Source: a virus. From it: 43,955 nucleotides of DNA. The stretch is from UHGV virus genome UHGV-0152227; one strand, written 5' to 3'. Below are positions 22,239-36,333 of the stretch, piece after piece (the stretch's first letter is position 1; the number at the start of each line of letters is the position of its first letter). The notes beneath the pieces are model-generated. The model had not been told where the DNA came from. It was given only the letters and a program-made list of their open reading frames with translations, and did no database searches. Made by a program: the position numbers and the translations under genes.

Positions 22239-22676
22239 TTAACCAGTTACTTTTGAGCGGATCGGGTACGGCGTATTGGCATCAACATCCAGACTGATAC
22301 CCGCAGTGAATTTGCCAGCCGTTAGTGGGCCAGTTGCGACGGAGTAGTTAACACGCAGATATCGCTGAACACCGGCAGGCACCTTTGCAGAAACAACTCG
22401 TTTACCTGCTGTCAGGGCGGTCTTTGCCAGTGCGCCACTATCATAAATAGTGGTCCATGAGCTGTTATTCTCACTCGTCTGCAACTGGATGTTTACAGTT
22501 GCATCACCGCTTGCCGCGGCGGCTGCGTTAACCAGCGCCCAAAACTCAAGCGGGTAACCCACGCCGATATCACGACGTTTTCCGTCAATTGGACCGAGAT
22601 CGATTACGTCAGTAGAAGCCGCGGTATTCGTAACCGCCTGAGCTTCGGAGAACATCAACAGTTTGTCGGTGATCAT
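22239..22676 (-). CDS. putative capsid decoration/cement protein (145 aa)
   Basis: Lies directly downstream of the major capsid gene, as do epsilon15 gp10 and BPP-1 cement proteins. The sequence looks beta-rich. Confidence 0.5.
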   Translation of the reverse strand: MITDKLLMFSEAQAVTNTAASTDVIDLGPIDGKRRDIGVGYPLEFWALVNAAAAASGDATVNIQLQTSENNSSWTTIYDSGALAKTALTAGKRVVSAKVPAGVQRYLRVNYSVATGPLTAGKFTAGISLDVDANTPYPIRSKVTG

Positions 22677-22691
22677 CTTCTTTCTCCATTA

Positions 22692-22711
22692 GTGGGTCTG
22701 TTACGACCCAC
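22692..22711 (-). other. stem-loop directly downstream of the major capsid gene
   Basis: Stem GTGGGTC / GACCCAC with a 6-nt loop and no T-run. Likely stabilises or attenuates the mRNA. Confidence 0.5.
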
Positions 22712-22727
22712 AGGTTAATAACAGGCG

Positions 22728-23720
22728 TTACACCACGCGGGCTTCTGTTTCCAGAAGCGCATCAGTTTCACGGATTGGTACACCACGGAATGAAGTCCAC
22801 CACTCGCCTTCTGTCTCTTTTACGCTGATCGCCAGAGATGTTTTCTCCAGAGATTGCAGATCAAGAGCCTGACCTACAGTGCGGTTCATGTAGAACACTG
22901 GGCGCCCCATGCCACGGTTTGGAATGCGATGCAGTGCTTTAACCATCAACTTCGCAATATTTGCGGCAGAGGAAGGTTCTGAAAGATTGCTGACATCGAT
23001 GTTTGCAATGCGAACAACATAACGCCAGTCACGCAGAGCAAGTCCGTTGTCCCATTTGTAATGGGTACGGTAGCCTTCGTACTTGCCGCCATTAGCATCT
23101 TCCAGTGTCACCTGGCCTTTATCTTCCATCTGAATGCCAGCCTTCTGCCCTTTCGGGAAGATGCCATGCACGGTGTTTTCGCCCCACACCACTAACCAGA
23201 TTGAGGTGTTATCTGTACCCGTGCCACCAGCATCAATGATGTTCTGAGCATTACCTGCAGACAGGCTGGAATAGCGGGAGGACAGTCCCATAAACTGCTG
23301 AGGGTTAACGCTGGAATCACCATAAAACAGCGTCTGCGCCATCTGCTGATTCATCGCTTCAATAAATGCGCGGTCTTCAGACAGGCGGAATTCGGCGGTA
23401 TTGCCGTTCAGATCAGCCAGTGACTTATCGACTTCAGCATAGGTTTCCAGCATGCCCACGGAATCGGTTACCTGCACTGTGGTTGATTTGCTTGGCTGTA
23501 CGCCATAGTTCAGCAAACGCCAGGTAGCTGAAGGTAAACCAGAACGAATGGTGGTTTTGTGTCCGGTAGGAAGGTTCCCTTCGACAAAAGGCATATCCTG
23601 AAGGATCGGGTTAGTTTGACCGAGAAGCTCGATAATCTTATCGACTTTCCCATCTGGATCGACGCGCTTACCCCAGTCAGCCAGCGTTAGCGCAGTTAAG
23701 CCTTTAACAGCCATTGTCAT
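22728..23720 (-). CDS. major capsid protein (HK97 fold, epsilon15 gp7-like)
   Basis: 330-aa ORF downstream of the scaffold gene. Sequence recognised as the epsilon15-type MCP family. An alternative ATG at 23714 has better RBS spacing. Confidence 0.9.
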   Translation of the reverse strand: MTMAVKGLTALTLADWGKRVDPDGKVDKIIELLGQTNPILQDMPFVEGNLPTGHKTTIRSGLPSATWRLLNYGVQPSKSTTVQVTDSVGMLETYAEVDKSLADLNGNTAEFRLSEDRAFIEAMNQQMAQTLFYGDSSVNPQQFMGLSSRYSSLSAGNAQNIIDAGGTGTDNTSIWLVVWGENTVHGIFPKGQKAGIQMEDKGQVTLEDANGGKYEGYRTHYKWDNGLALRDWRYVVRIANIDVSNLSEPSSAANIAKLMVKALHRIPNRGMGRPVFYMNRTVGQALDLQSLEKTSLAISVKETEGEWWTSFRGVPIRETDALLETEARVV

Positions 23721-23728
23721 TTCCTCTC

Positions 23729-24424
23729 TTATTTGCCATAGAGCACTTCGGCCGCACTACGCTGGCCTTCATTACCACCGGTGACCATGCCATCTTCAGA
23801 CATCGCCTTTCCGATTTTCACGAACGTTTTGACCAGATCAGGGTGATTACCCAGCCCGGTGGTGTTCAGATATTCTTTGAGTTCAGGTGTCCCGAACTGG
23901 TCAAGCGCACGCTGTGCGGCGCTAAGGTTAGAAATCAACTTGTCGCCACCGATTTCTTTGTCAGCTTTTACATCCGCAGCCCACTGCTCGGTTGTTTTCT
24001 GCCAGGCTTCTGCCTGGCGCTGCTGAACACCTGCCAGAATCTTCGGATAAGCATCAACCAGCTTTTGCGCTTGCTCGTTGGTCAGGTTAAGTTCTCGCGC
24101 CACCGGCTCGAATTCCTTCAACGCTTCTGTATCCAGCTCTACGCCTTCGGCTGCCTGAAACTCGTACTTCTCAGGCGCACCCTCTGGTTTATCGCCGTCC
24201 TTTTTTTCACCCTGCTTATCGTTTTCAGATTTTTTTTCATCATCAGGTTTATCGACATCAACAACAGGTTGTGGCTTATCACCTTCCTGTTGTGATGGAT
24301 CACCAGCTGGAGCAGGGTTATCACCTGCATGCGCTGACGGTTCTGACGCAGCCGGAGCTGCCCCACCATCGACTTGTTGCTCATTGCAAAGACGGCGATA
24401 CAGCAAACGCTCAAATAAACTCAT
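23729..24424 (-). CDS. scaffolding protein
   Basis: Acidic, low-complexity N-terminal part (PQPVVDVDKPDDEKKSENDKQGEKKDGDKPEG) and a helical C-terminus, between the portal-side genes and the MCP. AGGAG RBS 5 nt before the ATG at 24424. Confidence 0.8.
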   Translation of the reverse strand: MSLFERLLYRRLCNEQQVDGGAAPAASEPSAHAGDNPAPAGDPSQQEGDKPQPVVDVDKPDDEKKSENDKQGEKKDGDKPEGAPEKYEFQAAEGVELDTEALKEFEPVARELNLTNEQAQKLVDAYPKILAGVQQRQAEAWQKTTEQWAADVKADKEIGGDKLISNLSAAQRALDQFGTPELKEYLNTTGLGNHPDLVKTFVKIGKAMSEDGMVTGGNEGQRSAAEVLYGK

Positions 24425-24426
24425 GA

Positions 24427-24723
24427 TCACTCCTGTTCACTGGCCTCTTTGGCCATCTTCAAATACTGTTCAGGGCAATGCGCCATAACGCGCTGAAACA
24501 GTTCCAGCGCCAGATTGCGTTGCCCCTCATTAAATGCCATTGCCATAGCATCCATCGGAGAGATAGCGGAAAACACCCGGCCTTTCTCCAGCACCGACCA
24601 GACAACGCGACGCCCCTGTTCACTGCTCATGACAAAGCGAATGTCATCAATTTCACGCTGTGCCATGTCACGTTGCTTACGGGCGTTTTCTTCTTTCAGT
24701 TGATCGTCTTCGTAATCTGTCAT
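24427..24723 (-). CDS. conserved head-module protein (98 aa)
   Basis: ORF between portal and scaffold with overlapping junctions on both sides. Confidence 0.7.
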   Translation of the reverse strand: MTDYEDDQLKEENARKQRDMAQREIDDIRFVMSSEQGRRVVWSVLEKGRVFSAISPMDAMAMAFNEGQRNLALELFQRVMAHCPEQYLKMAKEASEQE

Positions 24724-26399
24724 TGTGATTGCCCACCCTGACCACTAACTGCATTCGCCATAGCTGACAAAACACTCGGATCCGAAGTTTTAGCTTCGCT
24801 TAGCGTCTTGGCACCCTGTGCCGCCGCCATCCCCATCGCCATCATTTGTTGCTGCTGTTGTTGCTGTGCCCGTTGCTGGCGAGCCTGCTCAACCTGTTCC
24901 TGCGGAACAATGACGGTTGGAGACACTCCGGACATATCAGCGAATGCATCGATCGCCTGATCAACGTTGAGTTTGTCGAGAGCTTCTGGTTTCGCTTGCG
25001 CAAGTTGACCAATAAAGTTGACCGTGGATGCCAGACTGGACAGGCCGATAGACTTCTGCGCCTGAGCCATGACGGAAATGTATTCGACCTTCAGGGGCAT
25101 ACCTTCCATCGCGTCAGGCGGTGGCGGCAGCATGTTTTTACGCACCATCATCGAGAAAGCGCGGTCAATGAGAGGATTAAGACATTCGTCGTTCAGACGC
25201 TCCAGAACCGGCCCCAACATCAGAAGTTTTTCTTCTTTCATTTCGATCACTGCTTCAACAGGCATCGAGCGGGTATTGATGTTCTGCAACATCATGAACA
25301 GATCGACAAAGTAGGCGCTGTTAATGATTTGACGAGTGTCCTGAATGTCTGCTACCAGATCTGCTGTACTGGGGTTAACCAGATAAGCAGGCCTGAAGCC
25401 ATCCTGACCAGTAATCTGATCGATATACGTGATGTCGCCAGGAAGAAGGGAGGCGCGCTGATTCTTGAGGGAAGTCGGAGCAACCATCGGCGGATTGGTG
25501 GCTTTATCAATCAACTGCGACTTGCGCTTCTGGAGAAGTTGCAATGCCTTAACAGGTCCAAGCGCCAGCATACCCGGGCATGATGATCCATAAACATCTT
25601 CGCCATTAACTTCCCAGCGCGGAGCCATAATTGGAAACTCATCAAATCCGGACTCACGCAACAACTTGTCGTTATCGCCACCAACCTCGTAATAAACCGA
25701 TTTGAATGGCTTGTTCTTGCTATCCAGCTTCGATGTATCGCGGTCAATGTTCGGGTAAACCGAATGCATCACTTCAATCCACTTCTCGTAGGTGCCGCTT
25801 TCCCACATGCTTTTTACGGATTCGCTGACGTTATTTAGTCCGAACTCCTGAACAAGCTGACGAACAGTCATAGAGAACCTGCGAAAACAGGTGTCTACAC
25901 TGCCACGAGGTGAGTTAGCCAGGTAGTAACTTCCTATCGGGAATGGCATTGTACGAATGATGTCCTCGTCATCCTCCAGCACCGCCATTGCGCCAGTGCT
26001 GTATGTGCCGAGGCTTCCGTATAACTGCGGCAGCGACTGATAGAGATTCGACTTATTGAACATATCGTTCATGCGGTTCTGCACCGCCTCAAGCCACAAC
26101 TTAACAGGGCCATAATCCATCATTTCAGGATCTGGCGTAGCCAGGCGAAACCACGGACGCGCGGGGCTTGTGATGCCTGACATCATGCCGCTGGCGAGAG
26201 TGCGCGCCGCCATAGTCCCGGTCGAATCAATAATGCGTGTATTGCGTCGATCGTTACGGTTGACCTCAGAAGTCAGAAAGCGGGAACCACGCGGGTTGAT
26301 GTAATCACTCAACTCGCGCCAGTGCGGCTCGAACGACTGACGCTCGCTTTCAAGTTGTGCGAACTGTTTGTTCAATCGCTCTTTAGTTGTTTCCGCCAT
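24720..26399 (-). CDS. portal (head-tail connector) protein, T7 gp8-type
   Basis: 559 aa. The N-terminal pattern LNKQFAQLESERQSFEPHWRELSDYI.PR is typical of podovirus connector proteins. Gln-rich C-terminus. Confidence 0.9.
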   Translation of the reverse strand: MAETTKERLNKQFAQLESERQSFEPHWRELSDYINPRGSRFLTSEVNRNDRRNTRIIDSTGTMAARTLASGMMSGITSPARPWFRLATPDPEMMDYGPVKLWLEAVQNRMNDMFNKSNLYQSLPQLYGSLGTYSTGAMAVLEDDEDIIRTMPFPIGSYYLANSPRGSVDTCFRRFSMTVRQLVQEFGLNNVSESVKSMWESGTYEKWIEVMHSVYPNIDRDTSKLDSKNKPFKSVYYEVGGDNDKLLRESGFDEFPIMAPRWEVNGEDVYGSSCPGMLALGPVKALQLLQKRKSQLIDKATNPPMVAPTSLKNQRASLLPGDITYIDQITGQDGFRPAYLVNPSTADLVADIQDTRQIINSAYFVDLFMMLQNINTRSMPVEAVIEMKEEKLLMLGPVLERLNDECLNPLIDRAFSMMVRKNMLPPPPDAMEGMPLKVEYISVMAQAQKSIGLSSLASTVNFIGQLAQAKPEALDKLNVDQAIDAFADMSGVSPTVIVPQEQVEQARQQRAQQQQQQQMMAMGMAAAQGAKTLSEAKTSDPSVLSAMANAVSGQGGQSQ

Positions 26400-26413: not shown

Positions 26414-26620
26414 TTACTGACCAAGCAGCGTTTTACCGCTGGTATTAGCGGTTGATGTGTCGCCCTGAGAACCGGTAAGCAGCGTAGAACTACGACCAGC
26501 AGCAGCGCGACGGCGACGAGTTTCTTCGTCGCGGGCATCAACAACGGCGGCATCCTGCTCCTGTGGTGCTGCCTGAACTTCTGGTGTTGCAGGCACTGAT
26601 GGTGAGCTACCCATGCACAT
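26414..26620 (-). CDS. small conserved protein preceding the portal gene (68 aa)
   Basis: GGAG RBS 9 nt upstream of the ATG. Low-complexity sequence ending in TLLGQ. Coding status is supported only by position and RBS. Confidence 0.5.
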   Translation of the reverse strand: MCMGSSPSVPATPEVQAAPQEQDAAVVDARDEETRRRRAAAGRSSTLLTGSQGDTSTANTSGKTLLGQ

Positions 26621-26688
26621 ATCAATGACTCCGTACGCAATTAAATTATTACCAATTTAACCACATATGATTTATTTATCGTAGATAG

Positions 26689-26725
26689 TTGACATTTAAC
26701 GCACAAATTATTACCTTTAGGGTAA
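26689..26725 (+). promoter_or_regulatory. promoter plus operator of the tRNA/gp49 moron
   Basis: TTGACA (26689-26694). Perfect dyad TTACC TTTAG GGTAA (26711-26725) overlaps the expected -10 position. The -10 hexamer itself is poor (TACCTT). Confidence 0.45.
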
Positions 26726-27047
26726 GTAAATGGTTCATTCCGGTTATTAACCTGACTGGCTTGTCGTTAAATTGAACAGGTGGAGTGAGCTTTTATTTTG
26801 AGCAGTACGGCGTATGGCACATGCGCCGATAGCGGTCTGGATACGTTTAAGGGGCTCCCTCCCTTGCTCGGGCAAACGAACCAGGTAGCCGGAATGTGCA
26901 AGTCGAGCGGTTTTATTCCGCGCACGGGGATTCACCATCCCGGCGATTCGGTGTGACGCCTCGGAAGAGACGAGGGTACAACGATGAGAGCATTTATGGA
27001 GCCGCGACAAAGTGTGGCGCCTTAACAGGCTAAGTGCTCTCAGCGTT

Positions 27048-27124
27048 GTGGCATTAGCTCAGTTGGACAGAGCAACCGCCTTCTAAGCGGTTGGTCGCAG
27101 GTTCGAATCCTGCATGCCACGCCA
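27048..27124 (+). tRNA. tRNA-Arg (anticodon UCU, reads AGA), CCA encoded
   Basis: A full cloverleaf folded by hand: acceptor GTGGCAT/ATGCCAC, D stem GCTC/GAGC, anticodon stem ACCGC/GCGGT with loop CT-TCT-AA, T arm GCAGG-TTCGAAT-CCTGC, discriminator G, then CCA. Confidence 0.92.
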
Positions 27125-27167
27125 GAATCACGCCTAAGGACCGTGATGCCAGAAGTTCCAGGGGCTT

Positions 27168-27210
27168 GGCGGTGATGGTTTCCCTTGAAGGACTATCACC
27201 GCCCTTTTTA
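27168..27210 (+). terminator. rho-independent terminator downstream of the tRNA
   Basis: 9-bp stem GGCGGTGAT (27168-27176) / ATCACCGCC (27195-27203), then CTTTTTA. Confidence 0.75.
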
Positions 27211-27287
27211 CAGCAGGACGCCATTGCGATGACTTCATGCTGTAAACCAGTACAGCCACGGAAGGCATAACTCATTGCTTCCAGTTC

Positions 27288-27311
27288 GCCCGGTTCGCCG
27301 GGCATTTTTTT
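27288..27311 (+). terminator. second terminator hairpin just upstream of the gp49-like gene
   Basis: Stem GCCCGG / CCGGGC with a TTCG loop, then ATTTTTTT. It ends 11 nt before the ATG at 27323. Confidence 0.7.
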
Positions 27312-27322
27312 AAGGTGAGATT

Positions 27323-27679
27323 ATGAACGACCAGCAAATCGAAAAAGAAATCGTTGAGAAAGGCAAAACCGCTCCGCGAGTTACGCCTCAATATATCGAA
27401 AGCATCATTCTTGAAGAGCATTTCTTTACTGCTTATGACGGCATTCGTGCTGCCAATATGGGAGTTGGCGATTCATGGACAGCGCATAAATCTACAGACC
27501 TCCTGACTTTCTGCGTATTGGTACTGAAGAATGGCTTCACCGTCACCGGAGAGAGTGCCTGTGCAAGTCCGGAAAATTTTGATGCAGAAATTGGTCGGAA
27601 GATTGCCCGGCAGAATGCTGTAAACAAAATCTGGATGCTCGAAGGTTACTTGCTGAAGCAGAAGTTAAGCGAGCAATAA
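27323..27679 (+). CDS. Gp49-family protein (N15 gp49-like, unknown function)
   Basis: AAGGTGAG RBS. The motif LTFCVLVLKNGFTVTGESACASPENFDAEIGRKIARQNA is recognised as the phage Gp49/Gp66 family. Confidence 0.7.
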   Translation: MNDQQIEKEIVEKGKTAPRVTPQYIESIILEEHFFTAYDGIRAANMGVGDSWTAHKSTDLLTFCVLVLKNGFTVTGESACASPENFDAEIGRKIARQNAVNKIWMLEGYLLKQKLSEQ

Positions 27680-27683
27680 CACC

Positions 27684-27695
27684 GTGACATGTCAC
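27684..27695. repeat. palindrome GTGACATGTCAC (copy 2)
   Basis: 4 nt after the gp49-like stop codon and 4 nt before the terminator stem. Confidence 0.9.
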
Positions 27696-27699
27696 AAAC

Positions 27700-27727
27700 A
27701 GCCAGCCGATGAGCTGGCTTTGTTTTA
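27700..27727. terminator. terminator between the convergent gp49-like and terL genes
   Basis: Stem AGCCAGC / GCTGGCT, loop CGATGA, then TTGTTTTA. Confidence 0.75.
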
Positions 27728-27769
27728 TCCTCATCAGAGGATATCAACGACATTATCCCCACTAGCGGA

Positions 27770-29245
27770 TTAAGCATAGGGATCGTAATCTGTGATGGCC
27801 TTGCCTTGCTGGTTCTGCTGCCCGGGAATTCGCAGACGCTTTGACACAGGGAAAGCAAACGTCAGCAGTAGCGCATCGCCTTTACCAGGAGAACGCCCAA
27901 GCCGCTCCTTGATATCTTCCTTCGGTTCGATAACGATTTTACCGTCCACTCGAACTTTATACTCTGCCGCCGACAGGTCGTCCGCTGTTTCCTGGTCATC
28001 CAGCATCCCGCCCAGCCTCAGCCATGTCTTGCATGAGTTGAACATCTCCCCACGCTTGTTGAGCATCTGCGGGTCAGTAGACGCGCCACCGAACGGAACA
28101 AGTTGCCATGTGCGCCCCCAACCATCACCGATTGACTTCAGACCGGTACCGTAACCGAAGTCGATGAACACCGCGTCAGCCTGATACTGGTCTTCAAAGT
28201 CAGCGATACGCTTCGCCATAATCAGATCGTCGGTGGTCTTGTTACCAGTCCATAGCACCTTACTGTGCAGCCCCTGCCGCAGGTATATCACAGCGTCATC
28301 AACGCCGGAGTATGCCGGGTCAACGCCGATTATCACCGGAGCATGCGCCACCTGCGCAGCGGTTACCACCCGTTTCATTGCCTCATCAGTAAGACCGGTA
28401 GGGATAAACTGCAATTCAGATGCATCAGGGAATATGCCGCGCACACGGATTTTAACGAAGTCGCTATCTTCCCCGTAGTCATCAACCCATTTCTGCAACT
28501 GCTGTTTGTTAGTGCCTTCCACCGTCCGGCTGTCAATCTGCGCAGTTTTCCAGCGGTGTTTATATTTGCGGAAACATTCGCGGAAACGCCCGGTGTTACG
28601 AGTAGGGTTTCCGAACGCCACCCAGATAATCTCAGTGTCTTCGTCCGTAAGCGCACCCTCAGCAACTTCCCACACCAGATCCGCAATGTTCGACGCTTCA
28701 TCGAATACCACGATGATGCGTTTGCGCTCGTTGTGTAGTCCGGCGAATGCCTCAGTGTTGTGCTCAGACCAGGGGATTGCGTCAGCTCGCCACCGCTTGT
28801 CGTGCCCAGGATCATTGCTGTACATCGCGGTAGCGGTACAGGTAAACCAGTCTTTCGTGATAGCAAGGTTCGACCACTTGATAATTTCCGGCCAGGTCTT
28901 CGTTCGTAGCTGGTTGTCGGTGTTGGCGGTCACCACGACCTTACAATCCTCGCAAGTGGACATGCCCCAGTTGATCAGCATTGAGATGAATGCGGATTTA
29001 CCAATACCGTGACCAGAAGCGCGTGCCAGCATAAGCGGCTGATAGCGCGTCTCTGGATTCTGCAGGTGATCACGTATCTCTCGGAACGCATCAGCCTGCC
29101 ACTGACGTGGGCCGGTGGCATGTGCCAGTTCAGTCCCCTCTTCCCCCCACGGGAACGCATAGAGGGCATAGCCAAGCGGATCGTGAGTGAACCCTGCAAT
29201 ATCCTCGATCAACTGCTCTTCAGGAGATAACGCTGTATCTGTCAC
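27770..29245 (-). CDS. terL: terminase large subunit
   Basis: Walker A-like LARASGHGIGKS and an acidic patch IIVVFDEAS, with a nuclease-domain-sized C-terminus. It follows terS with a 4-nt overlap. Confidence 0.9.
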   Translation of the reverse strand: MTDTALSPEEQLIEDIAGFTHDPLGYALYAFPWGEEGTELAHATGPRQWQADAFREIRDHLQNPETRYQPLMLARASGHGIGKSAFISMLINWGMSTCEDCKVVVTANTDNQLRTKTWPEIIKWSNLAITKDWFTCTATAMYSNDPGHDKRWRADAIPWSEHNTEAFAGLHNERKRIIVVFDEASNIADLVWEVAEGALTDEDTEIIWVAFGNPTRNTGRFRECFRKYKHRWKTAQIDSRTVEGTNKQQLQKWVDDYGEDSDFVKIRVRGIFPDASELQFIPTGLTDEAMKRVVTAAQVAHAPVIIGVDPAYSGVDDAVIYLRQGLHSKVLWTGNKTTDDLIMAKRIADFEDQYQADAVFIDFGYGTGLKSIGDGWGRTWQLVPFGGASTDPQMLNKRGEMFNSCKTWLRLGGMLDDQETADDLSAAEYKVRVDGKIVIEPKEDIKERLGRSPGKGDALLLTFAFPVSKRLRIPGQQNQQGKAITDYDPYA

Positions 29246-29838
29246 TGATTACCATCCTGACGTTCTTTGAGTCGCTTCCTGGCTGCTGCTATGCGATCAG
29301 CAATTGTCACATTCACATTAACATCCAGACGTTCTTTGAACGCGTTGACATCAACATGCTTACCAATCAGCTCAAGGTTCTTCACCTTGTCAGGCCATTT
29401 AATTTTTTTGAGGATTGTCTCTATCGAATCCTCGTTCATGTTCATGATGGTCGATGACAGATCAAAGCCACTAAGCGTAGTGCGCCAGATTTTCGGCCAC
29501 TCGCGGATTGGCTTAAGGCTCCCATCGTCGTTGAGGATGTCGATCACATCCATCTGGTCGATCTCCACCAGGCGCATAAGAACGTAATCGGCACTGACGC
29601 GCATTCGTTTGTTGCGCTCCTCCATCAGCTCGGCAATCCGTTTTTGAATGCGTTCATCGCGCATCATGACACTGGCTTTAACTGCCGCTGTATTTGGGGA
29701 GAATCCTGCGTTAATCGCTGCCTGAGTCTGGTTTTCAGGCGTTTTGATGTATGACTGGCAATAAGCCTCCTGCATTGCTGTTAGTGGCTTAAATTGCGTT
29801 GATTTGCGTTTATAGGTTTTAGGTTCAGCAGGCATCAT
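29242..29838 (-). CDS. terS: terminase small subunit (Terminase_2-like)
   Basis: KPLTAMQEAYCQSYIKTPENQTQAAINAGFSPNTA is a typical TerS HTH. The start is set at the ATG-ATG pair (29838/29835) after a GGTGG RBS. The 26-codon upstream extension in the ORF track spans a terminator and operator repeats. Confidence 0.8.
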   Translation of the reverse strand: MMPAEPKTYKRKSTQFKPLTAMQEAYCQSYIKTPENQTQAAINAGFSPNTAAVKASVMMRDERIQKRIAELMEERNKRMRVSADYVLMRLVEIDQMDVIDILNDDGSLKPIREWPKIWRTTLSGFDLSSTIMNMNEDSIETILKKIKWPDKVKNLELIGKHVDVNAFKERLDVNVNVTIADRIAAARKRLKERQDGNQ

Positions 29839-29870
29839 AACCACCGTGGTAATAGTTACCGTTGTGGTAA
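29838..29870. promoter_or_regulatory. two operator dyads directly upstream of, and overlapping, the terS start
   Basis: Perfect TTACC GTTGT GGTAA (29856-29870) and 9/10 TAACC ACCGT GGTAA (29838-29852), centres 18 bp apart. On the minus strand this reads as a tandem of GGTA(A)CTATTACCAC. Confidence 0.55.
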
Positions 29871-29881
29871 TAGTACCATGC

Positions 29882-29907
29882 AAAATAAAGCCGCCATAGT
29901 TGGCGGC
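29882..29907 (-). terminator. rho-independent terminator at the end of the early-left operon, upstream of terS
   Basis: Stem GCCGCCA (29890-29896) / TGGCGGC (29901-29907). The minus strand continues TTTATTTT. Confidence 0.75.
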
Positions 29908-29948
29908 AGTATTCAAAACCCATCAAATTCATCATGCATAATCTACTC

Positions 29949-29960
29949 GTGACATGTCAC
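29949..29960. repeat. palindrome GTGACATGTCAC (copy 3)
   Basis: Overlaps the stop codon (29957-29959) of the 113-aa zinc-finger gene and lies 41 nt upstream (minus-strand sense) of the terminator stem. Confidence 0.9.
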
Positions 29961-30298
29961 ACTATTAATTTCGTTTCATGCCAGCCTTTAGTCACCCAGC
30001 ATTGCGAGTCACCATTACACGGGCATGAATTAACTGGAACTCTCTCGCCGCACTTACCGCAACGTTTTCTGCTGATCGATTTTATACGCCCGCGCACCCG
30101 GGCATCATCCTGGCGGATCAGCAGCGCGATGTACTCGGCCATTTCATAGGGATCTCGACCAGGGCGCCGGGCGGCGCAGTTCCGCTCCAGCATTTCAATT
30201 TCCTGAGCATCAAGCACAATCTCCAGCTTACGTACACCGGATTCAGCTTGTCTGGCTCTCTGAGCGGCTTTGCGCTCTGCTGCTGATTTAGCCATCAA
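29957..30298 (-). CDS. 113-aa protein with a basic N-terminal helix region and a C-terminal Cys cluster, candidate regulator
   Basis: AAERKAAQRARQAESGVRKLEIVLDAQEIEMLE resembles small DNA-binding proteins. CGKCGERVPVNSCPCNGDSQC is a zinc-ribbon-like cluster. It is the last gene before the late operon. Confidence 0.6.
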   Translation of the reverse strand: MMAKSAAERKAAQRARQAESGVRKLEIVLDAQEIEMLERNCAARRPGRDPYEMAEYIALLIRQDDARVRGRIKSISRKRCGKCGERVPVNSCPCNGDSQCWVTKGWHETKLIV

Positions 30299-30330
30299 TA
30301 TTTACCTTTATCGCGAACACCTTTACCGGT

Positions 30331-30573
30331 TTATCTCCTTTGCATGGCACGTAATTTTTTCAGATGGTTCTCCTGTTCTGTTTCAGCCAGGATCTGGTGA
30401 TATTCTCTGTGATCAATGTGTTCGAATAAATTATTGAATTTTCTGATGCACACCCTTCCAGGATAGCCATCCATCCTCTTGAAGAATACTGAGTGATCAG
30501 TACTACGAATGATTTTTACTGGATAGCCGGCGCTATCGGTGTATATCTGACCACGTTGAATCAGAGAGAACAT
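30331..30573 (-). CDS. hypothetical protein (80 aa, possibly DUF4222-like)
   Basis: Clean ORF in the early-left operon. Family assignment is weak. Confidence 0.6.
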   Translation of the reverse strand: MFSLIQRGQIYTDSAGYPVKIIRSTDHSVFFKRMDGYPGRVCIRKFNNLFEHIDHREYHQILAETEQENHLKKLRAMQRR

Positions 30574-30634
30574 TCGTTTATCCCCAGATAAAAATATAGC
30601 AATACCAATTACATAAAATACTTCAGGCCAAGCA

Positions 30635-31360
30635 TCATTTCACCTCCTGCGGCGGTTCTGGTAGAGGCATCCAATTGATTACATCGCATTTAGGGATGCT
30701 GATATCATCACCAAGCCACCCTTGACCTTCAGACCAGCATTGCACGTAATACCCGTATTCTGTGTTCACTACGCACCACTGCGCGTCGTTCGGCATTCGC
30801 TCACTACAGCTTATCCAACCATCCGGAGTTACCGGATAGTTGACAGCCAGTCTGCGCAAAACAGCCTTAACAGCCTCAATACGGTCATCATCAACTTTTT
30901 CTACAATATTGGAATTTAAATACTTCGAAGCCTTGCTATGCCAATCGCTGGTTTTAGGGTCTTGTCCATCCATCAAACGCCAAGCTTCAGCGATTAACTC
31001 ATAGCCAGTAACAGTGGCTTCCTGCGCATCACCAATCAGTTGTGTGATCTCTCTTTCAAGCATGCTTAGAGCGTTAGGCATTGGTTTTTCTTCCGGTACT
31101 ACTGGAACGGGTGGGGCGGCGTAGACCTCAATAATTCCATTATCAATAGGCCATTCTCCATCCTTGAGGTAGTCACTTGTGCCGTCAACTTGCTGTTCTG
31201 CAATGTGGAATGCACCTATTGGTTTTGCCTCAAGCGAGGCCAGTGCAATTCGTGCCAGTTCTTCCGCTTCTTCTGCTGGCAGTACAACGTTGCTACCAGG
31301 TCCGTATGTTTCGCGCCACTGCCTGATTGTCAGCAGTCGCTCTTTGGTAATAGTGGTCAT
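30635..31360 (-). CDS. DUF551 domain protein (241 aa)
   Basis: C-terminal signature W...P.....W.........INWMPLPEPP, typical of lambdoid early-region DUF551 proteins. Confidence 0.7.
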   Translation of the reverse strand: MTTITKERLLTIRQWRETYGPGSNVVLPAEEAEELARIALASLEAKPIGAFHIAEQQVDGTSDYLKDGEWPIDNGIIEVYAAPPVPVVPEEKPMPNALSMLEREITQLIGDAQEATVTGYELIAEAWRLMDGQDPKTSDWHSKASKYLNSNIVEKVDDDRIEAVKAVLRRLAVNYPVTPDGWISCSERMPNDAQWCVVNTEYGYYVQCWSEGQGWLGDDISIPKCDVINWMPLPEPPQEVK

Positions 31361-31370
31361 GTGTTAGTCC

Positions 31371-31634
31371 TTATCCTGCTGTACTTTCAACTGATGAGGG
31401 GAATAAAATCTTTTCATCAAATCCGGCATTCATATCATGAACAGCAACACACCAATCCATTGACGAACGATTATCAAGAGCCTCCATGATTTCATCCATG
31501 CGGCGCAGGTCATACAGGTAAATGCTTTTATCGCCAATGGTGTAAAAACCAATTTTTTTCGGTGATGGGCAGCGATCAAGAACGTCCTGTAATTCGCTCA
31601 ACCATGCTTGTTCTTTTTTTGTCAAAGTTGCCAT
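31371..31634 (-). CDS. hypothetical protein (87 aa)
   Basis: AAGGAGAG RBS before the ATG at 31634 (MATLTKKEQAWL...). The ORF track starts at 31688, inside the upstream gene. Confidence 0.65.
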   Translation of the reverse strand: MATLTKKEQAWLSELQDVLDRCPSPKKIGFYTIGDKSIYLYDLRRMDEIMEALDNRSSMDWCVAVHDMNAGFDEKILFPSSVESTAG

Positions 31635-31635
31635 A

Positions 31636-32202
31636 TCACTCTCCTTTAATGCGAATGTCAGCGACGCGTAATGCGTGTTCCAGGTCAATCAGGTAAAGCC
31701 AACTGCCATTTTCTTTAGGTATCATGACATGTCGCTCATCTGCATTTATCGGGTGTCCATATCGAAGGTCGTAGCGAGTCGGTAATTGAACTTCCCGCGC
31801 TTCCAGTTCAGCAATGCGCTTCTCTGCGGCCTCTGCCCTGCATTGTTCCCGTTGGAACATTTTGTGGGTGCGGTCGAGCGCCTCAAGTCTGGCTGCTGAT
31901 GTTTTCTCTTCTGCTTCAAGCTCAACGCGCAGCTTCCCAACCGTAAGCGCAATATCCTCGTTCTCCTGGTCGCGGCGTTTGATGTATTGCTGGTTTCTTT
32001 CCCGTTCATCCAGTAGTGCCAGCACGGTTTCTGGTCCGGCCAGAAATTTGAAGGCGTTGAGCGCATCAATATCCACACCGTAATCTTTAAGTTCCTGTTC
32101 ACTTAACAAATCATCATCAACTGGCAACATTAACAGGCGTTCCATTGCTGGAATTGCACGTTCTGCCGCCTCACGCAGTGCCTGATAGTTAATTTTGGTC
32201 AT
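31636..32202 (-). CDS. Ead/Ea22-like protein, paralogue 3
   Basis: The N-terminus MTKINYQALREAAERA is shared with the 32500-33324 protein. Coiled-coil centre. Confidence 0.7.
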   Translation of the reverse strand: MTKINYQALREAAERAIPAMERLLMLPVDDDLLSEQELKDYGVDIDALNAFKFLAGPETVLALLDERERNQQYIKRRDQENEDIALTVGKLRVELEAEEKTSAARLEALDRTHKMFQREQCRAEAAEKRIAELEAREVQLPTRYDLRYGHPINADERHVMIPKENGSWLYLIDLEHALRVADIRIKGE

Positions 32203-32203
32203 A

Positions 32204-32503
32204 TCACATCACCCTGAAGCCGTTGCATTTACGTAAAAAATCGCAGATATAGCCCTTCATTTTTTCGTGCCAATCTCGATCATTCCCATTGCACCAACCA
32301 TCAGGTGGAGTCCAGTTTTCTATCAGAGCAGCCATTTTCTTTGCTTTCGCCGGAGTAGCTGTTGCGGTATCGCAGTAATGACGAGTGTCAACCAACGTAT
32401 CCATACCATCGATATCAAGTACGCAAAACCATGTGTGATTCGGCATTTCAACAGATGGTATTTGTTGCCCACGTCGACGTTTATCAATAAGACATACAGT
32501 CAC
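32204..32503 (-). CDS. hypothetical protein (99 aa)
   Basis: ORF whose ends abut or overlap both neighbouring genes. Confidence 0.6.
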   Translation of the reverse strand: MTVCLIDKRRRGQQIPSVEMPNHTWFCVLDIDGMDTLVDTRHYCDTATATPAKAKKMAALIENWTPPDGWCNGNDRDWHEKMKGYICDFLRKCNGFRVM

Positions 32504-33324
32504 TGGTTGCCTCCTTTGCGAAGCTGGGCAGCAAAGTCAACTAACCACTCAGTCATTTCAACCTTCCCTACCAGGTCTGAACCAGGGTGCATACAGCAAT
32601 CACTCTGCGCCGCTTTGAAATCCTTATACTCATATTCTTGGGCCACCAGATTTTTTGCAGCTTCTATAGCAGCATCCACCCCCTGCGCCCGAACTTCAGC
32701 CAGGAAAGCGTCGGTGGCTGGGGTTTCGACATTAGGTCGAAGCTCATAATCACAAACTCTTTCAATCCATGGTGATACTCTGTCGCATTTCCTCTTCTTG
32801 CGTTCACCGACCTTGGTTGCCTGCTGAATAATTACCCCCCAGCAAATGCTTTCGACCTCTTCGCTCCATCCATCGCAAGCATCGCCTCTATAGTCGTCAA
32901 TTGCAGCCTCAGCAGCAGCGATAGCCTCCTCAGCAGTTTTGTGACACTCGAAACTAAATTCAGAGCCATATGAGAAATACATAGCCCCGGCCTTCAGCGC
33001 CGCATTCTCCGCTGCCAGCGCCACGAGATTAGTCTCAAGCTCTGCAATTCGACACATAGCATCAATATTTGTGTCCTCCAGGCGCTTAATTTCACCAAGC
33101 AGCTCCAGTGCAACCTTTGGGTTGAACGCGGCAACATAACGAGCGTTGTTCTCTGCATTTTTCTGTCCATCAAAGCCGGTCCATTTGATAACGTCTTCAC
33201 ATCGTTCATCACCGGGCGTGTGCACCGCATAAGTACCAGTATCCGTCGAAATAAATGCGACCCATTCGTCTGGTGTTGCCTTTTCTGCCGCCTCACGCAG
33301 TACCTGATAATTAATCTTGCTCAC
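32500..33324 (-). CDS. Ead/Ea22-like protein, paralogue 2
   Basis: N-terminus MSKINYQVLREAAEKA, the AENAALKA coiled-coil motif, and a C-terminus FAAQLRKGGNQ shared with paralogue 1. Confidence 0.7.
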   Translation of the reverse strand: MSKINYQVLREAAEKATPDEWVAFISTDTGTYAVHTPGDERCEDVIKWTGFDGQKNAENNARYVAAFNPKVALELLGEIKRLEDTNIDAMCRIAELETNLVALAAENAALKAGAMYFSYGSEFSFECHKTAEEAIAAAEAAIDDYRGDACDGWSEEVESICWGVIIQQATKVGERKKRKCDRVSPWIERVCDYELRPNVETPATDAFLAEVRAQGVDAAIEAAKNLVAQEYEYKDFKAAQSDCCMHPGSDLVGKVEMTEWLVDFAAQLRKGGNQ

Positions 33325-33890
33325 TGGCTGCCTCCTTTGCGAAGCTGTTCAGCGATATCTTCGAGAACGCCATCAGAGAATGAGCGGTCAAAATCGCCTT
33401 CCCGCGCATTAGCCATAAACTCAGTAGAGGTAAGAATCATCCGGGCAATATCCGCGGCGTTCTTCGCAGTATCATCAATAAAACCAGCTTCCCAAGCAGC
33501 CAGCATTCTGTTCGCCACAAAGTAAGCGCCCTCCTTGCGTGCTTCAGTCTTCACTTCATCCAGGAAAGTGTCGGTCGCAGGAGTGGTTTTTTGTGGTGAT
33601 AGGGCGATACGAATTGTTTCAAGAGCTGGATCTATTTCCACTGTTGGCACTTTGATAAAACCAAGCTGCACGCCATTCATAATGAACGTGCGGCGATCCT
33701 CACATATCGCCTTCAGCGCCGCATTCTCCGCTGCCAGCGCATTAGCACGCGCCAGTTGCACTTCCAGTTGCGTTGCCAAATCGCTGATCAGCTTTGCCAC
33801 ACTGCGCATATCAACGGCACCACATTCTGCTTTCAGTTCCGAAGCCATCTCATGCCCGGCGGAAACTAACCCTTTGATATTACTTTCCAT
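33321..33890 (-). CDS. Ead/Ea22-like protein, paralogue 1
   Basis: AENAALKA motif and C-terminus IAEQLRKGGSQ. The DNA at 33322-33350 nearly repeats 32500-32528. Confidence 0.7.
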   Translation of the reverse strand: MESNIKGLVSAGHEMASELKAECGAVDMRSVAKLISDLATQLEVQLARANALAAENAALKAICEDRRTFIMNGVQLGFIKVPTVEIDPALETIRIALSPQKTTPATDTFLDEVKTEARKEGAYFVANRMLAAWEAGFIDDTAKNAADIARMILTSTEFMANAREGDFDRSFSDGVLEDIAEQLRKGGSQ

Positions 33891-33951
33891 CTTTACCCTC
33901 GCTTATCCACATAACTTATTGATTACATTGATAACTAAAAAGATCGTCGAT

Positions 33952-34296
33952 TCAGAACTCTTCGATGTTCCAGCCGCCACCTGCTTTCTTTGGTTTAACC
34001 GTTACCCCGATGATGCGGAACGGATACTGATCTGCTGCGACTTTGGTTTTCACCCTGGCGTCGTCGGTCCAGAAACCTTTCACCTCGTGTAATTCCATCT
34101 CGCCGGTGGTGAGCATCACCGCGAAATCTGGCGTATAGAACGTGTTATCAGCTAACCGCAGCTTGATACCCTCGAATCGATACCAGGCGATTTCCCCTGC
34201 ACGTTTACGCAGCTCAAGGTGCTGGCAATACGCAGATTCTGTTTTGTTCATCTGGCCTGTTTTGAGTCGACCAAGAGCCTGTATCTGTTTTCTCAT
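33952..34296 (-). CDS. DUF1064-type PD-(D/E)XK nuclease (putative Holliday-junction resolvase)
   Basis: The pattern YTPDF....ELHEVKG is the DUF1064 catalytic core. Confidence 0.7.
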   Translation of the reverse strand: MRKQIQALGRLKTGQMNKTESAYCQHLELRKRAGEIAWYRFEGIKLRLADNTFYTPDFAVMLTTGEMELHEVKGFWTDDARVKTKVAADQYPFRIIGVTVKPKKAGGGWNIEEF

Positions 34297-34298
34297 GA

Positions 34299-34376
34299 TT
34301 TACCTCTAAGGTAATTAAAAACCACATAAGACACGAAATCAATAGAGCTTAGAATATTTTGTTACCCACCAGGTAA
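34299..34376. promoter_or_regulatory. two perfect operator dyads plus an internal minus-strand promoter
   Basis: TTACC TCTAA GGTAA (34299-34313; overlaps the GAGG RBS of the 33952-34296 gene) and TTACC CACCA GGTAA (34362-34376), centres 63 bp apart. Minus strand: TTGATT, 17-bp spacer, TTTAAT, directly abutting the first dyad. Confidence 0.55.
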
Positions 34377-34413
34377 TTGTTGAGGCGTAAAAAAATGCGC
34401 TATCGCGCTGGTA

Positions 34414-35190
34414 TTACTTGATAAATCCTACCGCCTTTCCCCGCCTGTATTCCTCCATCAGCCACTGCGCCGGTGTTATTCCCCCCAGGGTGGCGGCGTT
34501 AGGCATACACCCGAAACTTCGCCCTGGTGGATGGTAAACGTCTCTCCCTGTGTCCGGAGGTGTACTCATGGGTTCTGGCTTTGCCTGTATGCTGATCACC
34601 GGATCGGGTATCTGCTGTCCGGAAGCCACCTTTTTCGCCCAATCATCGAGCAGCCTGCGCGCGTGTTTCTCAACCTCAATCTCGCTAAGCTGGCGCTGAT
34701 ACATTGCACGGCGGGTATCACATACGACCCAGTACATAACCGGATGTCGCCACGGGAATCTTTCGGGACCACCAGGATATAAACTTTTTTCCTTGCTGTA
34801 CCGGTGAAACTCCGCCATCACATCGTCAATGGTGACGCCAAGAACCATCTTGCTGTCTTTGCACCACTTGATGAATTGCCCAGGCGACGGCCAGAACGGA
34901 GATTCACTGGCGCGGGCGTGGCGCATACCAGCGTTAACCTGTTCCATTGTTGTGATCCCATTCTCCAGAAACGCAAGCATCCATTGCTTACGGAATTCAT
35001 TAAGTTTGTTCTGCTCCCTTATGGTCGAAACGCTTGCAGGAAATGCAGCCTGTAACTGGACAAATAGTTCATTGAAAATTCTAGCAACCTGCTCCTTTTT
35101 GCCATTGCTGTCACGCCGCTCTTCATGCACAGCAACACCATGCTCACGTAAGCGATCGTACTCATTGAGAAGTTCTGGAGTTGATTTCAT
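34414..35190 (-). CDS. replication protein P-like (helicase loader)
   Basis: The motif FWPSPGQFIKWCK and the overall layout are recognised from lambda P family proteins. It follows the O-like gene. Confidence 0.75.
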   Translation of the reverse strand: MKSTPELLNEYDRLREHGVAVHEERRDSNGKKEQVARIFNELFVQLQAAFPASVSTIREQNKLNEFRKQWMLAFLENGITTMEQVNAGMRHARASESPFWPSPGQFIKWCKDSKMVLGVTIDDVMAEFHRYSKEKSLYPGGPERFPWRHPVMYWVVCDTRRAMYQRQLSEIEVEKHARRLLDDWAKKVASGQQIPDPVISIQAKPEPMSTPPDTGRDVYHPPGRSFGCMPNAATLGGITPAQWLMEEYRRGKAVGFIK

Positions 35191-35992
35191 CCCACACCCC
35201 TTCTATCCAGTCAGTGTTATTCCAGTCAAGCTCATCGCTTTTCCCGGCGTTTTTTGATTTTCCCCTGATATGATTTACGTGCCTGGCGAATTTTTGTTCC
35301 CACTGAACCTGCGTGAACACTTTGCCCTCAGCCATCCAGTAATCCCGGAATGCAGCAAGTTCAGCAGGTGTAAATTCCGGTTCCGGCAGGGCCGTTCCCC
35401 ACAGCGCAGCACGCCGTCGAAAATCCGGCGACGGATGCCAGCCATCGGTCATCGGAAATTTCCCGATGGGTTCACTCAGGCCATCCAGAAATTCAGGTTC
35501 AGCCACCTGCAACGGCATACCGTTCGCTTCACTGGTCGGAGCACCCTCGCGCACGTGCGCTATGTGTGGGGTTTTATATATATCTTCCTCTTCCTCTTCC
35601 TCTGGTAACTCCTTTTGTAACGCTGTTGGCGTTACTTTTTGCGTTACTCGTTTTCGATGCTCTGCCACTCTTCTATTCGTAAGTGCACGTTTTTTCGATG
35701 ATTCTCCATTATGTCGCTCAAAGTTTGGAAGAATTAGTTTGCCGTCATGATAAGCAAGCCATCCGACGCTAATGAGGGCGTCAGCAAATCCTGTAATAAA
35801 AGCGAGTCTATCAAGTACTCCTTTTGTAACGCTGCCAGCGTTACCGTCTATTGTTTGCTGGTCAGCCCATGCCCATATACGAACCAGCTTTCCAAGAACA
35901 GCATCTGGATCAATACCCAGAATTTCTGCTATCTGAAAAATTTCAGGTTTATCAGGAGTGATAACTTCAACCTTAATCCAGCTGCTTGCCAT
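35162..35992 (-). CDS. replication initiation protein (O-like, DnaT-like C-terminal region)
   Basis: MASSWIKVEVITPDKPEIFQIAEILG..., an acidic linker EEEEEED, and a C-terminal ELAAFRDYWMAEGKVFTQVQWEQKF. The start is set at the ATG at 35992. Confidence 0.7.
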   Translation of the reverse strand: MASSWIKVEVITPDKPEIFQIAEILGIDPDAVLGKLVRIWAWADQQTIDGNAGSVTKGVLDRLAFITGFADALISVGWLAYHDGKLILPNFERHNGESSKKRALTNRRVAEHRKRVTQKVTPTALQKELPEEEEEEDIYKTPHIAHVREGAPTSEANGMPLQVAEPEFLDGLSEPIGKFPMTDGWHPSPDFRRRAALWGTALPEPEFTPAELAAFRDYWMAEGKVFTQVQWEQKFARHVNHIRGKSKNAGKSDELDWNNTDWIEGVWDEINSRTSQ

Positions 35993-36167
35993 AGGTTTCC
36001 CCTCTTGCACTCTTTAGTGCACAAGCAAATTCATTACGATGGCGGTTGGCGCTATTCATTGCACATTCAACACATGTTCCGTTCAGAACATACCTTTCAG
36101 AGAGATGGCCGTGACGGCACCGCTTTCCTGTGAAATAGCGATTTAACCCGGCTTTTGCGGCCTCCAT
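35973..36167 (-). CDS. small zinc-ribbon protein (64 aa)
   Basis: GKRCRHGH...NGTCVEC pattern. The start is ambiguous between ATG 36167 and TTG 36185. Confidence 0.5.
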   Translation of the reverse strand: MEAAKAGLNRYFTGKRCRHGHLSERYVLNGTCVECAMNSANRHRNEFACALKSARGETYGKQLD

Positions 36168-36263
36168 TCTGGTTACTATCTTCAATTTTTCCGCCCCTTT
36201 TTGTTATTGATATTGGCTATTTTGCACAATTGGAAAATTTGATCAACCAGATTTGGTTTTTTA

Positions 36264-36278
36264 TTACCTTTGAGGTAC
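36264..36278. promoter_or_regulatory. isolated near-consensus operator downstream of the cro-like gene terminator
   Basis: TTACC TTTGA GGTAC (9/10). Confidence 0.45.
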
Positions 36279-36287
36279 GAATAGATA

Positions 36288-36312: not shown

Positions 36313-36333
36313 ACAGAGGGTTGTAGCTGGATA

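Follow-up and report, generated by a model that had tools for sequence, protein, structure and literature searches.

Background

In temperate podoviruses related to phiV10 and epsilon15 (Uetakevirus), a block of opposite-strand DNA stands between terL and the portal gene, and the present analysis concerns this block, above all a structured RNA that it appears to encode, in the virus genome UHGV-0152227 (43,955 nucleotides, the whole of which is hereafter called the window). The annotations of phiV10, of the O157 typing phages 9/10 and of epsilon15 show the same position, the same strand, a tRNA-Arg (lacking in epsilon15), terminators and a gene of Pfam family PF13876, and in these records the RNA region is blank or bears spurious open reading frames (ORFs).

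Several described systems can be compared with this locus. The put element of phage HK022 is an RNA-only processive antiterminator of ~70 nt with two stem-loops (PMC9378689). In lambdoid phages, copies of the RNA described here lie just past an operator-controlled PL and ahead of a strong terminator, in the place of putL or of nutL-N, and no dedicated protein partner is apparent, as for put; in contrast to put, the RNA is ~170-240 nt long, has six or more helices together with an H-type pseudoknot, shows no sequence or model similarity to it, occurs as a single copy per phage and not as an L/R pair, and is known, in addition, from tRNA fusions, from P1 and from an N4-like phage. Phages also carry structured non-coding RNAs (ncRNAs), often beside tRNAs or co-transcribed with them, such as GOLLD, ROOL and the 'species 1 and 2' RNAs of the T4 tRNA cluster; the RNA of the window has no Rfam match to GOLLD or ROOL, is much smaller and has so far been found only in Enterobacteriaceae phages. 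Like lambdoid morons, the block has its own promoter-like site and terminators, lies between two late genes, holds variable cargo and is absent from distant relatives, but unlike them it is fixed across the genus, operator-controlled rather than prophage-expressed, and conserved in an RNA rather than in a protein gene.

Acb4 proteins have been known since 2024. PF13876 is the Acb4 family of anti-CBASS cyclic-dinucleotide sponges; Acb4 of phage SPO1 forms tetramers that sequester 3'3'-cGAMP and kindred CBASS signals, and 3'3'-cGAMP was bound by all homologues assayed (8/8) (PMC11722364). Thus, the block in annotated relatives, its ordinary tRNA and the Acb4 family are already known, and we found no description of the RNA family, of its fusion to a tRNA or tRNA-like structure, of its spread over at least three phage lineages, or of the gap as a slot for counter-defence cargo.

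Results

A conserved structured RNA ahead of the tRNA

The stretch between promoter region and tRNA, initially annotated as a 320-nt untranslated stretch, has indeed no conserved reading frame on either strand (26726-27047), but it is no plain leader, since it forms a conserved, pseudoknotted RNA of ~240 nt, made of a core and a closing hairpin (Table 1), that is shared with unrelated phages. In an alignment of 36 non-redundant copies, six helices were proposed, two of which (P4 and P5) interleave as an H-type pseudoknot. Standard pairs filled 98.2% of the cells, compared to 26-47% when the partners were slid by 1-3 columns, and 12 pairs had changed on both sides (72 cells); the observed values were reached in 0/500 shuffles. 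Support from covariation is thus strong, and it is best for P1, the base of P2, P4, P5 and P6 (Table 1). The folded strand is the + strand, since ~86 G-U cells would become A-C mismatches if the other strand folded. In addition, the core has long conserved single-stranded stretches, its variable helices differ in length, and RNAalifold gives an alternative long-range helix competing with P1.

The covariance model found a single match in the window (26808-26978, 137.5 bits, E 2.5e-42) and one match per locus elsewhere, with one exception. On the - strand of that locus (L028), the only multi-copy one, two core copies (3997-4152 and 4804-4957) stand in tandem ~650 nt apart. No Rfam 15 family reached its gathering threshold over the RNA when the whole window was scanned, and permissive Rfam searches gave no match to it at E up to 10 on 26560-27760 or at E up to 0.1 on six related loci. 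A literature search by sequence words, with a catalogue of 10,006 viral structured-RNA candidates lying outside the comparison, found no paper containing the conserved sequence, and no mention of the element was found in the P1 and mEp phage literature.

Two resemblances were set aside. Mimicry of ribosomal RNA was considered for a 13/13 identity to 23S (E 0.017) and a 14/15 identity to 16S (E 0.26), which are treated as chance because their positions vary among relatives. The Pas small RNAs (sRNAs) of pathogenic E. coli have another genomic context, near Q and lysis genes.

Distribution and genomic contexts of the RNA

Besides relatives, a distant BLAST search with 26621-27047 matched P1/P7/D6/SJ46-type phages, the lambdoid phages mEp460, cdtI, Stx2c phages and Ayreon, a lytic N4-like phage of Klebsiella, and a phage whose deposited host is Stenotrophomonas. 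The identity in these non-relatives was 75-82% over 110-240 nt, and the matched regions are unannotated. An exact search with the conserved 19-mer retrieved at least 120 IMG/VR contigs, as well as 24 GTDB species genomes, which belong to Enterobacteriaceae genera apart from two doubtful matches to metagenome-assembled genomes, one of them only partial; note that loci fetched in this way are unable to show variation of the 19-mer itself. By BLAST, the RNA is present in 1840 of 5426 complete E. coli genomes (about one third), and it is annotated in none of them.

Of 131 loci, 62 have an S24 cI-type repressor gene on the strand of the RNA, which begins 100-200 nt past it; the others comprise 42 uetakeviruses and 27 further loci, mostly P1-like, in which it stands ahead of ban. 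In mEp460, for example, cI and its terminator are followed by two TTGC..GCAA operators, a PL-like promoter and the RNA, after which come a tRNA-like structure, a strong terminator and the first early-left gene; this phage has an annotated Q, and no N-like protein is annotated in its early regions. In P1, the RNA is part of the C1-controlled ban operon, where it separates trnI from ban. These arrangements suggest that the RNA belongs to a repressor-controlled early transcript in lambdoid phages, P1 and uetakeviruses, and no protein is its conserved neighbour across these three contexts.

Closing hairpin, tRNA and tRNA-like structures

The duplex of the closing hairpin reaches -24 to -33 kcal/mol in 24 of the 36 representatives, in which the sequences differ and yet remain complementary. 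Read on the sequence, its 3' strand abuts the tRNA, the first base of which lies at the 27047/27048 junction, so that RNase P would separate RNA and tRNA. The tRNA-Arg(UCU) with encoded CCA of the initial annotation was recovered by ARAGORN, by Rfam and on reading the sequence (3' end ...GCCAC-G-CCA). It has A20 and C35, which are arginine identity elements, together with a D-loop AGUUGGACA, an anticodon loop CUUCUAA and a 3' end G-CCA.

Codon usage in the window is split by expression class. AGA accounts for 79 of the 836 Arg codons; the genes from capsid to portal (22239-26399) have none, nor do terS and terL, and it is frequent in early-region ORFs (29957-36564), in accessory genes, in a 923-aa ORF (4936-7707) and in a GC-poor transferase gene (ORF 3979-4830, GC 0.39, weak hexapeptide-transferase match). 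For the latter, first described as an AT-rich acetyltransferase using AGA/AGG for 8 of its 11 arginines, that count is exact (7 AGA and 1 AGG). The accompanying idea that the tRNA serves AGA-using genes of foreign composition agrees numerically with this distribution in early and accessory genes, but the tRNA does not serve its neighbour acb4, since acb4 has zero AGA or AGG codons.

Among 120 IMG/VR loci, ~25 have a tRNA-Arg(UCU) at the same spacing from the RNA, and ~17, which are P1-like, have a CAU-anticodon tRNA (annotated as tRNA-Ile in P1) directly upstream of it, so that ~42 touch a tRNA gene; no recognised tRNA stands beside the RNA in the remainder. In one other phage locus (L017, - strand), a cloverleaf-shaped sequence lies ~150 nt past the closing hairpin, with a long extra arm, a non-canonical 9-nt T loop and an anticodon stem-loop GACUUUUAAUC with the Lys-type loop CUUUUAA, a stem-loop that presumably matches that of E. 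coli tRNA-Lys(UUU). This cloverleaf could be a decoy for tRNA-Lys-cleaving nucleases, or a substitute resistant to them. In mEp460 (L007), a perfect 7-bp acceptor-like stem closes 129 nt in the place of the tRNA. Neither ARAGORN nor Rfam calls a tRNA in the tRNA-like shapes beside the RNA, and the 7-bp closure test has an estimated chance rate of ~20%; a general rule by which every copy of the RNA would have a tRNA-like shape after it is thus only moderately supported and is not claimed here. The comparisons nevertheless suggest a mobile module composed of the core, the hairpin, a tRNA or tRNA-like structure, and then T1.

Other RNA sequences were observed next to some copies. In four loci (L037, L038, L076 and L099), another conserved block of ~200 nt (AUCAGCCAUUCACGCUAAGCAUC...) directly follows P6 and replaces the closing hairpin; its first 13 nt are complementary to a GUGAAU..GGCUGAU segment found past the hairpin in other copies, and it may be another RNA module or an alternative pairing. 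An RprA-like 3' domain (UUGCUGUGUGUAGUCUU-GCCC..GGGC-U7) follows the RNA unit in L010 (2631-2750) and also in L015, L016, L017 and L078; it scores 50 bits against Rfam RprA (E 0.0015), under the gathering score of 70, and resembles the 3' part of a host sRNA copied into a prophage.

Putative promoter and operator

The operator-controlled promoter region that had been noted at the start of the block holds up. Sites of the form TTACC-N5-GGTAA with at most one mismatch occur 14 times in the window, where 0.7 are expected, and six uetakeviruses preserve both the -35 and the operator; in SPN9TCW the operator is only ~28 nt ahead of P1, and the epsilon15 record annotates the homologous site as repressor-binding. 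A promoter scan of the window gave no site over its threshold in the block, and the promoter is thus an inference from conservation.

The weak second promoter-like site ends 8 nt ahead of the first helix of the RNA, and in other phages (L017, L047 and L038) a -10 hexamer lies 7 nt ahead of the same P1 helix; that the site acts as a promoter in the window is speculative. In the same area, epsilon15 (L005 3197-3315), Tyrion and the Klebsiella homologues have an extra long hairpin upstream of P1 (ACAUAACUAAAAGCGCG...UGCGCUUUCAGGUGUGU) that resembles the closing hairpin, and the epsilon15 record marks this area as an RNase III site; the window keeps only a degenerate 3' half of it (~26776-26803).

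The operator-like copies lie at 7812, 8192, 9259, 10509, 26711, 29838, 29856, 34300, 34362, 36264, 36601, 36649, 37361 and 37423. Clusters of them are seen ahead of terS, around the C4/isrK locus and in the regulatory region at 34.3-37.4 kb, and the 14 copies outline a candidate repressor regulon of the phage.

Terminators and palindrome

Three + strand terminators are predicted in the block, as the initial annotation had it, except that the last one, T3, which closes the unit and had been called bidirectional, is found on the + strand only; the scan gave no - strand site, the phiV10 record annotates T3 on the - strand, and the - strand tail past the last hairpin is GTTTGTGA. Since no - strand terminator is predicted, there is no evident barrier to late transcripts running antisense through the block. 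Both uetakeviruses and lambdoid phages have a terminator of the T1 type (GGCGGT..ACCGCC-TTTTTACA) after the RNA unit. Note that a terminator census past the RNA in 36 loci missed at least one obvious terminator (in L078), and it is used here for the conserved T1 only and not for frequencies. Inspection of the core and of the T1 arms gave no convincing complementarity. The T1-T2 spacer, conserved whatever cargo follows, yielded no family match and no convincing promoter, and T2, which is kept ahead of differing cargo genes in relatives, runs directly into the ribosome-binding site of acb4 (AAGGTGAG).

The 12-bp palindrome is present as claimed, but it is not peculiar to the block: in view of the exact copies elsewhere in the window, it is rather a motif repeated at the edges of late units, its sites lying beyond the last late ORF, after terL and ahead of terS. 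Possibly, a late regulator binds there. A copy with one mismatch is found at 24660-24671.

Acb4 and the cargo slot

The gene first assigned to the Gp49 family matches PF13876 over the full profile, and this family now has a function, that of Acb4, which the gene would share. Its product has a sole match in PDB, the SPO1 Acb4 entry 9e4w, which is weak (43 residues, 20 bits, E 0.006). Compared to SPO1 Acb4, the protein is alike in its full-length Pfam match and in this local match to the solved protein, and it differs in its low overall similarity and in an N-terminal extension, that half varying between alleles. Indeed, it is 71% identical to the phiV10 and epsilon15 proteins, with the difference mainly in the N-terminal half, and the DNA just upstream (26621-27321) is ~99% identical to phiV10.

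In a Klebsiella relative, the same slot behind the same T1-T2 leader holds a protein with a Tad2-like (anti-Thoeris) domain (E 4e-26), and SPN9TCW and Tyrion have unrelated proteins there. The divergence of the alleles behind ~99% identical DNA and the change of cargo among relatives suggest that the slot holds fast-changing cargo. Both cargo genes with an assigned family belong to families of counter-defence sponges; PADLOC gave no matches on the cargo proteins. A scan detected no promoter of acb4 itself.

Layout and ancestry of the block

The region is 96-99% identical to phiV10, the O157 typing phages 9/10 and other Uetakevirus records, which identifies the window as a temperate podovirus of the epsilon15/phiV10 type. 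The opposite-strand gap from terL to gp3 measures 1149 bp, and the sign of the GC skew reverses across it; the late operon resumes at the gp3-like ORF, homologues of which precede the portal gene in all relatives. This layout bears out the description of an antiparallel block that begins at an operator-overlapped promoter between terL and gp3/portal, and the block is a real, probably repressor-controlled accessory unit.

A block at the same place was found in phiV10, the O157 typing phages, ZX5, SPN1S/SPN9TCW, Tyrion and Klebsiella prophages, i.e., in every enteric uetakevirus sampled, Tyrion keeping the RNA without the tRNA. In epsilon15, the remnant has neither core nor tRNA and keeps the promoter, the first RNA helix (40-bit model match), T1 in its 3' half, a whole T2 and the gene of family PF13876. 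What is deleted extends from the P2 loop into T1, which points to a loss of RNA and tRNA by deletion and not to primitive absence. In contrast, the distant Pseudomonas phage Tr60_Ab31 has terL, 12 nt, a gp3-like gene and the portal gene without any insert, and phage AF and a Vibrio phage carry small same-strand genes at the junction. Since Tr60_Ab31 joins these genes directly, the terL-gp3 junction would be an insertion point and, in view of the small genes of the other two phages, a hot spot for accessory genes. The initial annotation saw an insertion that splits terL from portal, and had taken an ancestral block, universal in relatives, as what would speak against this; at the genus level such a block is what we find. 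Thus, the insertion point stands, whereas a recent insertion in this phage does not: the block appears ancestral to the genus, an old slot in which the RNA-tRNA-terminator part would be the conserved element and the cargo turns over.

Table 1. Features of the block and of the flanking genes in the window (+, strand of the block; -, strand of the late genes)
Feature	Position	Strand	Remarks
RNA core	26808-26975	+	Covarying helices and H-type pseudoknot
P1	26808-26812 / 26824-26828	+	G-C to A-U, 16 vs 19 sequences
Possible loop pairing (P1 loop with 19-mer)	26817-26822 / 26894-26899	+	Fully complementary but invariant
P2	26832-26840 / 26881-26889	+	Variable tip; base CUGG/CCAG, CCGG/CCGG, CCAC/GUGG
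Conserved 19-mer GGTAGCCGGAATGTGCAAG	26884-26902	+	Invariant in nine independently found phages
P3	26907-26910 / 26918-26921	+	
P4 (pseudoknot)	26927-26930 / 26938-26941	+	GGGA/UCCC, ACGC/GCGU, UUGA/UCAA
P5 (pseudoknot)	26933-26936 / 26950-26953	+	CACC/GGUG to AACC/GGUU
P6	26959-26963 / 26971-26975	+	4/5 pairs covary
Closing hairpin ('module 2')	26979-27047	+	CAACGAUGAGAGCA (26979-26992) pairs with UGCUCUCAGCGUUG (27035-27048); variable tip
tRNA-Arg(UCU)	27048-27124	+	Sole ARAGORN tRNA in the window; Rfam tRNA 73.3 bits vs gathering score 29
Putative sigma-70-like promoter, operator-overlapped	26689-26725	+	-35 TTGACA (26689-26694), 17-nt spacer, -10 TACCTT (26712-26717)
Operator TTACCTTTAGGGTAA	26711-26725	+	Exact TTACC-N5-GGTAA copy overlapping the -10
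Weak second promoter-like site	26772-26799	+	TTGAAC, 16 nt, TATTTT; 8/12 consensus matches; read directly from the sequence
T1	27168-27203	+	Terminator scan; 14-bp stem, then CTTTTTACA
T1-T2 spacer	27204-27287	+	~80% identical in epsilon15 and Tyrion
T2	27288-27303	+	Terminator scan; GCCCGG-TTCG-CCGGGC, then T7
acb4 homologue, 118 aa	27323-27679	+	PF13876, E 1.7e-34, 118.6 bits vs cut-off 27, profile 1-82/82
12-bp palindrome GTGACATGTCAC	27684-27695		Exact copies also at 10312-10323 and 29949-29960; 0.08 expected by chance
T3	27700-27719	+	Terminator scan
Portal gene	24720-26399	-	PF12236
gp3-like small ORF	26414-26620	-	phrog_831 match, E 2.4e-36
terL	27770-29245	-	
terS	29242-29916	-	

Discussion

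The best overall explanation, in which we have roughly even confidence, is that the block is a long-established, repressor-controlled accessory unit, giving an early RNA-tRNA-cargo transcript with a cis-acting RNA. Transcription of the block would oppose that of the packaging and head genes and would begin at a promoter with its -10 within an operator of the phage, and because of this overlap it is probably repressed in the lysogen and on early. A putative RNase P cut at 27047/27048 would free the RNA and the tRNA; the latter would help to decode AGA in those early and accessory genes that are rich in it, and may also stand in for a host tRNA under attack, and Acb4 would soak up CBASS cyclic dinucleotides. 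The RNA itself would act in cis on the transcribing RNA polymerase, which would then pass T1 and T2 and allow the cargo gene to be expressed, and in lambdoid phages it would do likewise for the early-left genes.

That the RNA is such a cis-acting aid to terminator read-through is a tentative proposal. It is favoured by a strong terminator fused to the ribosome-binding site of acb4, a gene with no detectable promoter of its own, by the same terminator leader preceding whatever cargo fills the slot, and by lambdoid phages without an annotated N, in which the unit, terminator included, separates PL from the early-left genes; the 62 of 131 loci downstream of cI are counted toward it. Several observations weigh on the other side. 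The covariance model finds nothing in the HK022 regions, and the RNA is unrelated in size and fold to put, which is, to our knowledge, the only known RNA antiterminator. No second RNA copy was found on the PR side of lambdoid phages, whereas HK022 carries a putR beside its putL. In P1, the RNA is 2.4 kb from the promoter and directly ahead of ban, with no terminator between, and in epsilon15 acb4 stands intact behind T2 although the RNA is gone. A processive antiterminator would also ignore T3 and lead to transcription antisense into terL. In addition, the own terminator, the frequent tRNA-like structure and the RprA-like sRNA together look like a string of stand-alone RNA genes. Finally, the promoter falls short of the scan threshold, and the point where transcription starts, like the RNase P cut, is putative.

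The resemblance to a string of RNA genes leads to a possible, though rather doubtful, alternative in which the RNA is a stable trans-acting ncRNA, cut by RNase P or RNase E from a multi-RNA precursor and directed at a conserved host component or a defence system (e.g., as a decoy), T1 being its own terminator. The closing hairpin abutting the 5' end of the tRNA, and in other lineages a cloverleaf-like structure (the Lys-type loop of L017 and the 7-bp stem of mEp460), would fit such a precursor, as would the share of IMG/VR copies touching a tRNA gene, the conserved terminator of the unit, the RprA-like domain that follows in some lambdoid phages, the counter-defence nature of the adjoining cargo and the presence of the RNA in a lytic N4-like phage. 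Nevertheless, no conserved protein neighbour accompanies the RNA over the three contexts, the tRNA-like shapes are unrecognised by ARAGORN and Rfam and pass a closure test with a sizeable chance rate, and the expression of acb4 and of the lambdoid early-left genes behind strong terminators is left unexplained, which read-through in cis would account for.

It is improbable that the core is a ligand-sensing aptamer (riboswitch) gating T1/T2, perhaps one that senses an immune nucleotide signal and turns on the sponge gene. Its complex pseudoknotted fold with long conserved single-stranded stretches, the terminators downstream, the RNAalifold pairing that competes with P1 and a downstream cargo family that binds cyclic nucleotides would all suit a riboswitch; however, a complete tRNA stands between core and T1, hence no overlapping expression platform, the inspection for core-T1 arm complementarity was negative, and the genes downstream in lambdoid phages and P1 have no link with nucleotide signalling.

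There is likewise little probability that the unit is a simple tRNA moron, with 320 nt of ordinary leader, supplying AGA decoding to genes of foreign composition. The tRNA is canonical, the codon counts are confirmed (8/11 Arg in the GC-poor transferase), and AGA is used in early and accessory genes and not in head genes. Nevertheless, the part concerning the leader is already contradicted by its conservation, with compensatory changes, in phages without any tRNA, Tyrion retains the RNA without the tRNA, and the block is ancestral in the genus; codon supplementation may hold for the tRNA, yet it leaves the RNA, the terminators and the sponge gene unexplained.

It is very improbable that the conserved stretch is protein-coding or a DNA-level site: homologues of an 87-aa ORF (26747-27010, -) do cluster in 81 loci, and hypothetical proteins have been placed here in the records of phiV10 and mEp460, but the 19-mer-anchored frame of this ORF is broken by stops or frameshifts in most of the 36 representatives and has no Pfam match, an 83-aa ORF (27054-27305, -), the phiV10p04 homologue, is antisense to the tRNA, the variable helices differ in length and the G-U pairs are strand-specific. 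The hypothetical proteins of the phiV10 (phiV10p04) and mEp460 (gp36, gp37) records, antisense to the tRNA and over the RNA unit, are probably spurious, and several GenBank records carry such ORFs on the RNA and on the antisense strand of the tRNA.

Returning to the early, repressor-controlled RNA-tRNA-cargo transcript, the RNA would head transcripts of this kind in three unrelated lineages, near tRNAs and immune-evasion genes, and its position makes a role in early transcription or counter-defence testable in standard E. coli systems. The RNA could be categorically new in function. It is conceivable, if somewhat unlikely, that the core founds a new class of phage RNA working without a dedicated protein, either a second, structurally unrelated type of RNA-only processive antiterminator or a counter-defence RNA made from tRNA precursors. 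In the former case, N-less lambdoid phages, P1-like phage-plasmids and epsilon15-like podoviruses would use an antiterminator RNA; in both cases, about one third of sequenced E. coli genomes would hold a common unannotated functional RNA. An antiterminator would also explain early-left expression in lambdoid phages of the SfV/mEp460 type, which have no annotated N. As for the terL-portal gap of epsilon15-like phages, it would be a cargo slot for Acb4- and Tad2-like sponges, useful for finding evasion genes.

Other RNA families in the window

Outside the block, adjacent Rfam matches to isrK (63.5 bits) and to the C4 antisense RNA (66 bits) lie at 8243-8427, a pairing typical of P1/P7-type antirepressor control, and the same pair is found in mEp460 (L007 206-394). 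A match to the sRNA-Xcc1 family (64.2 bits, over the gathering score) was observed at 41771-41860.

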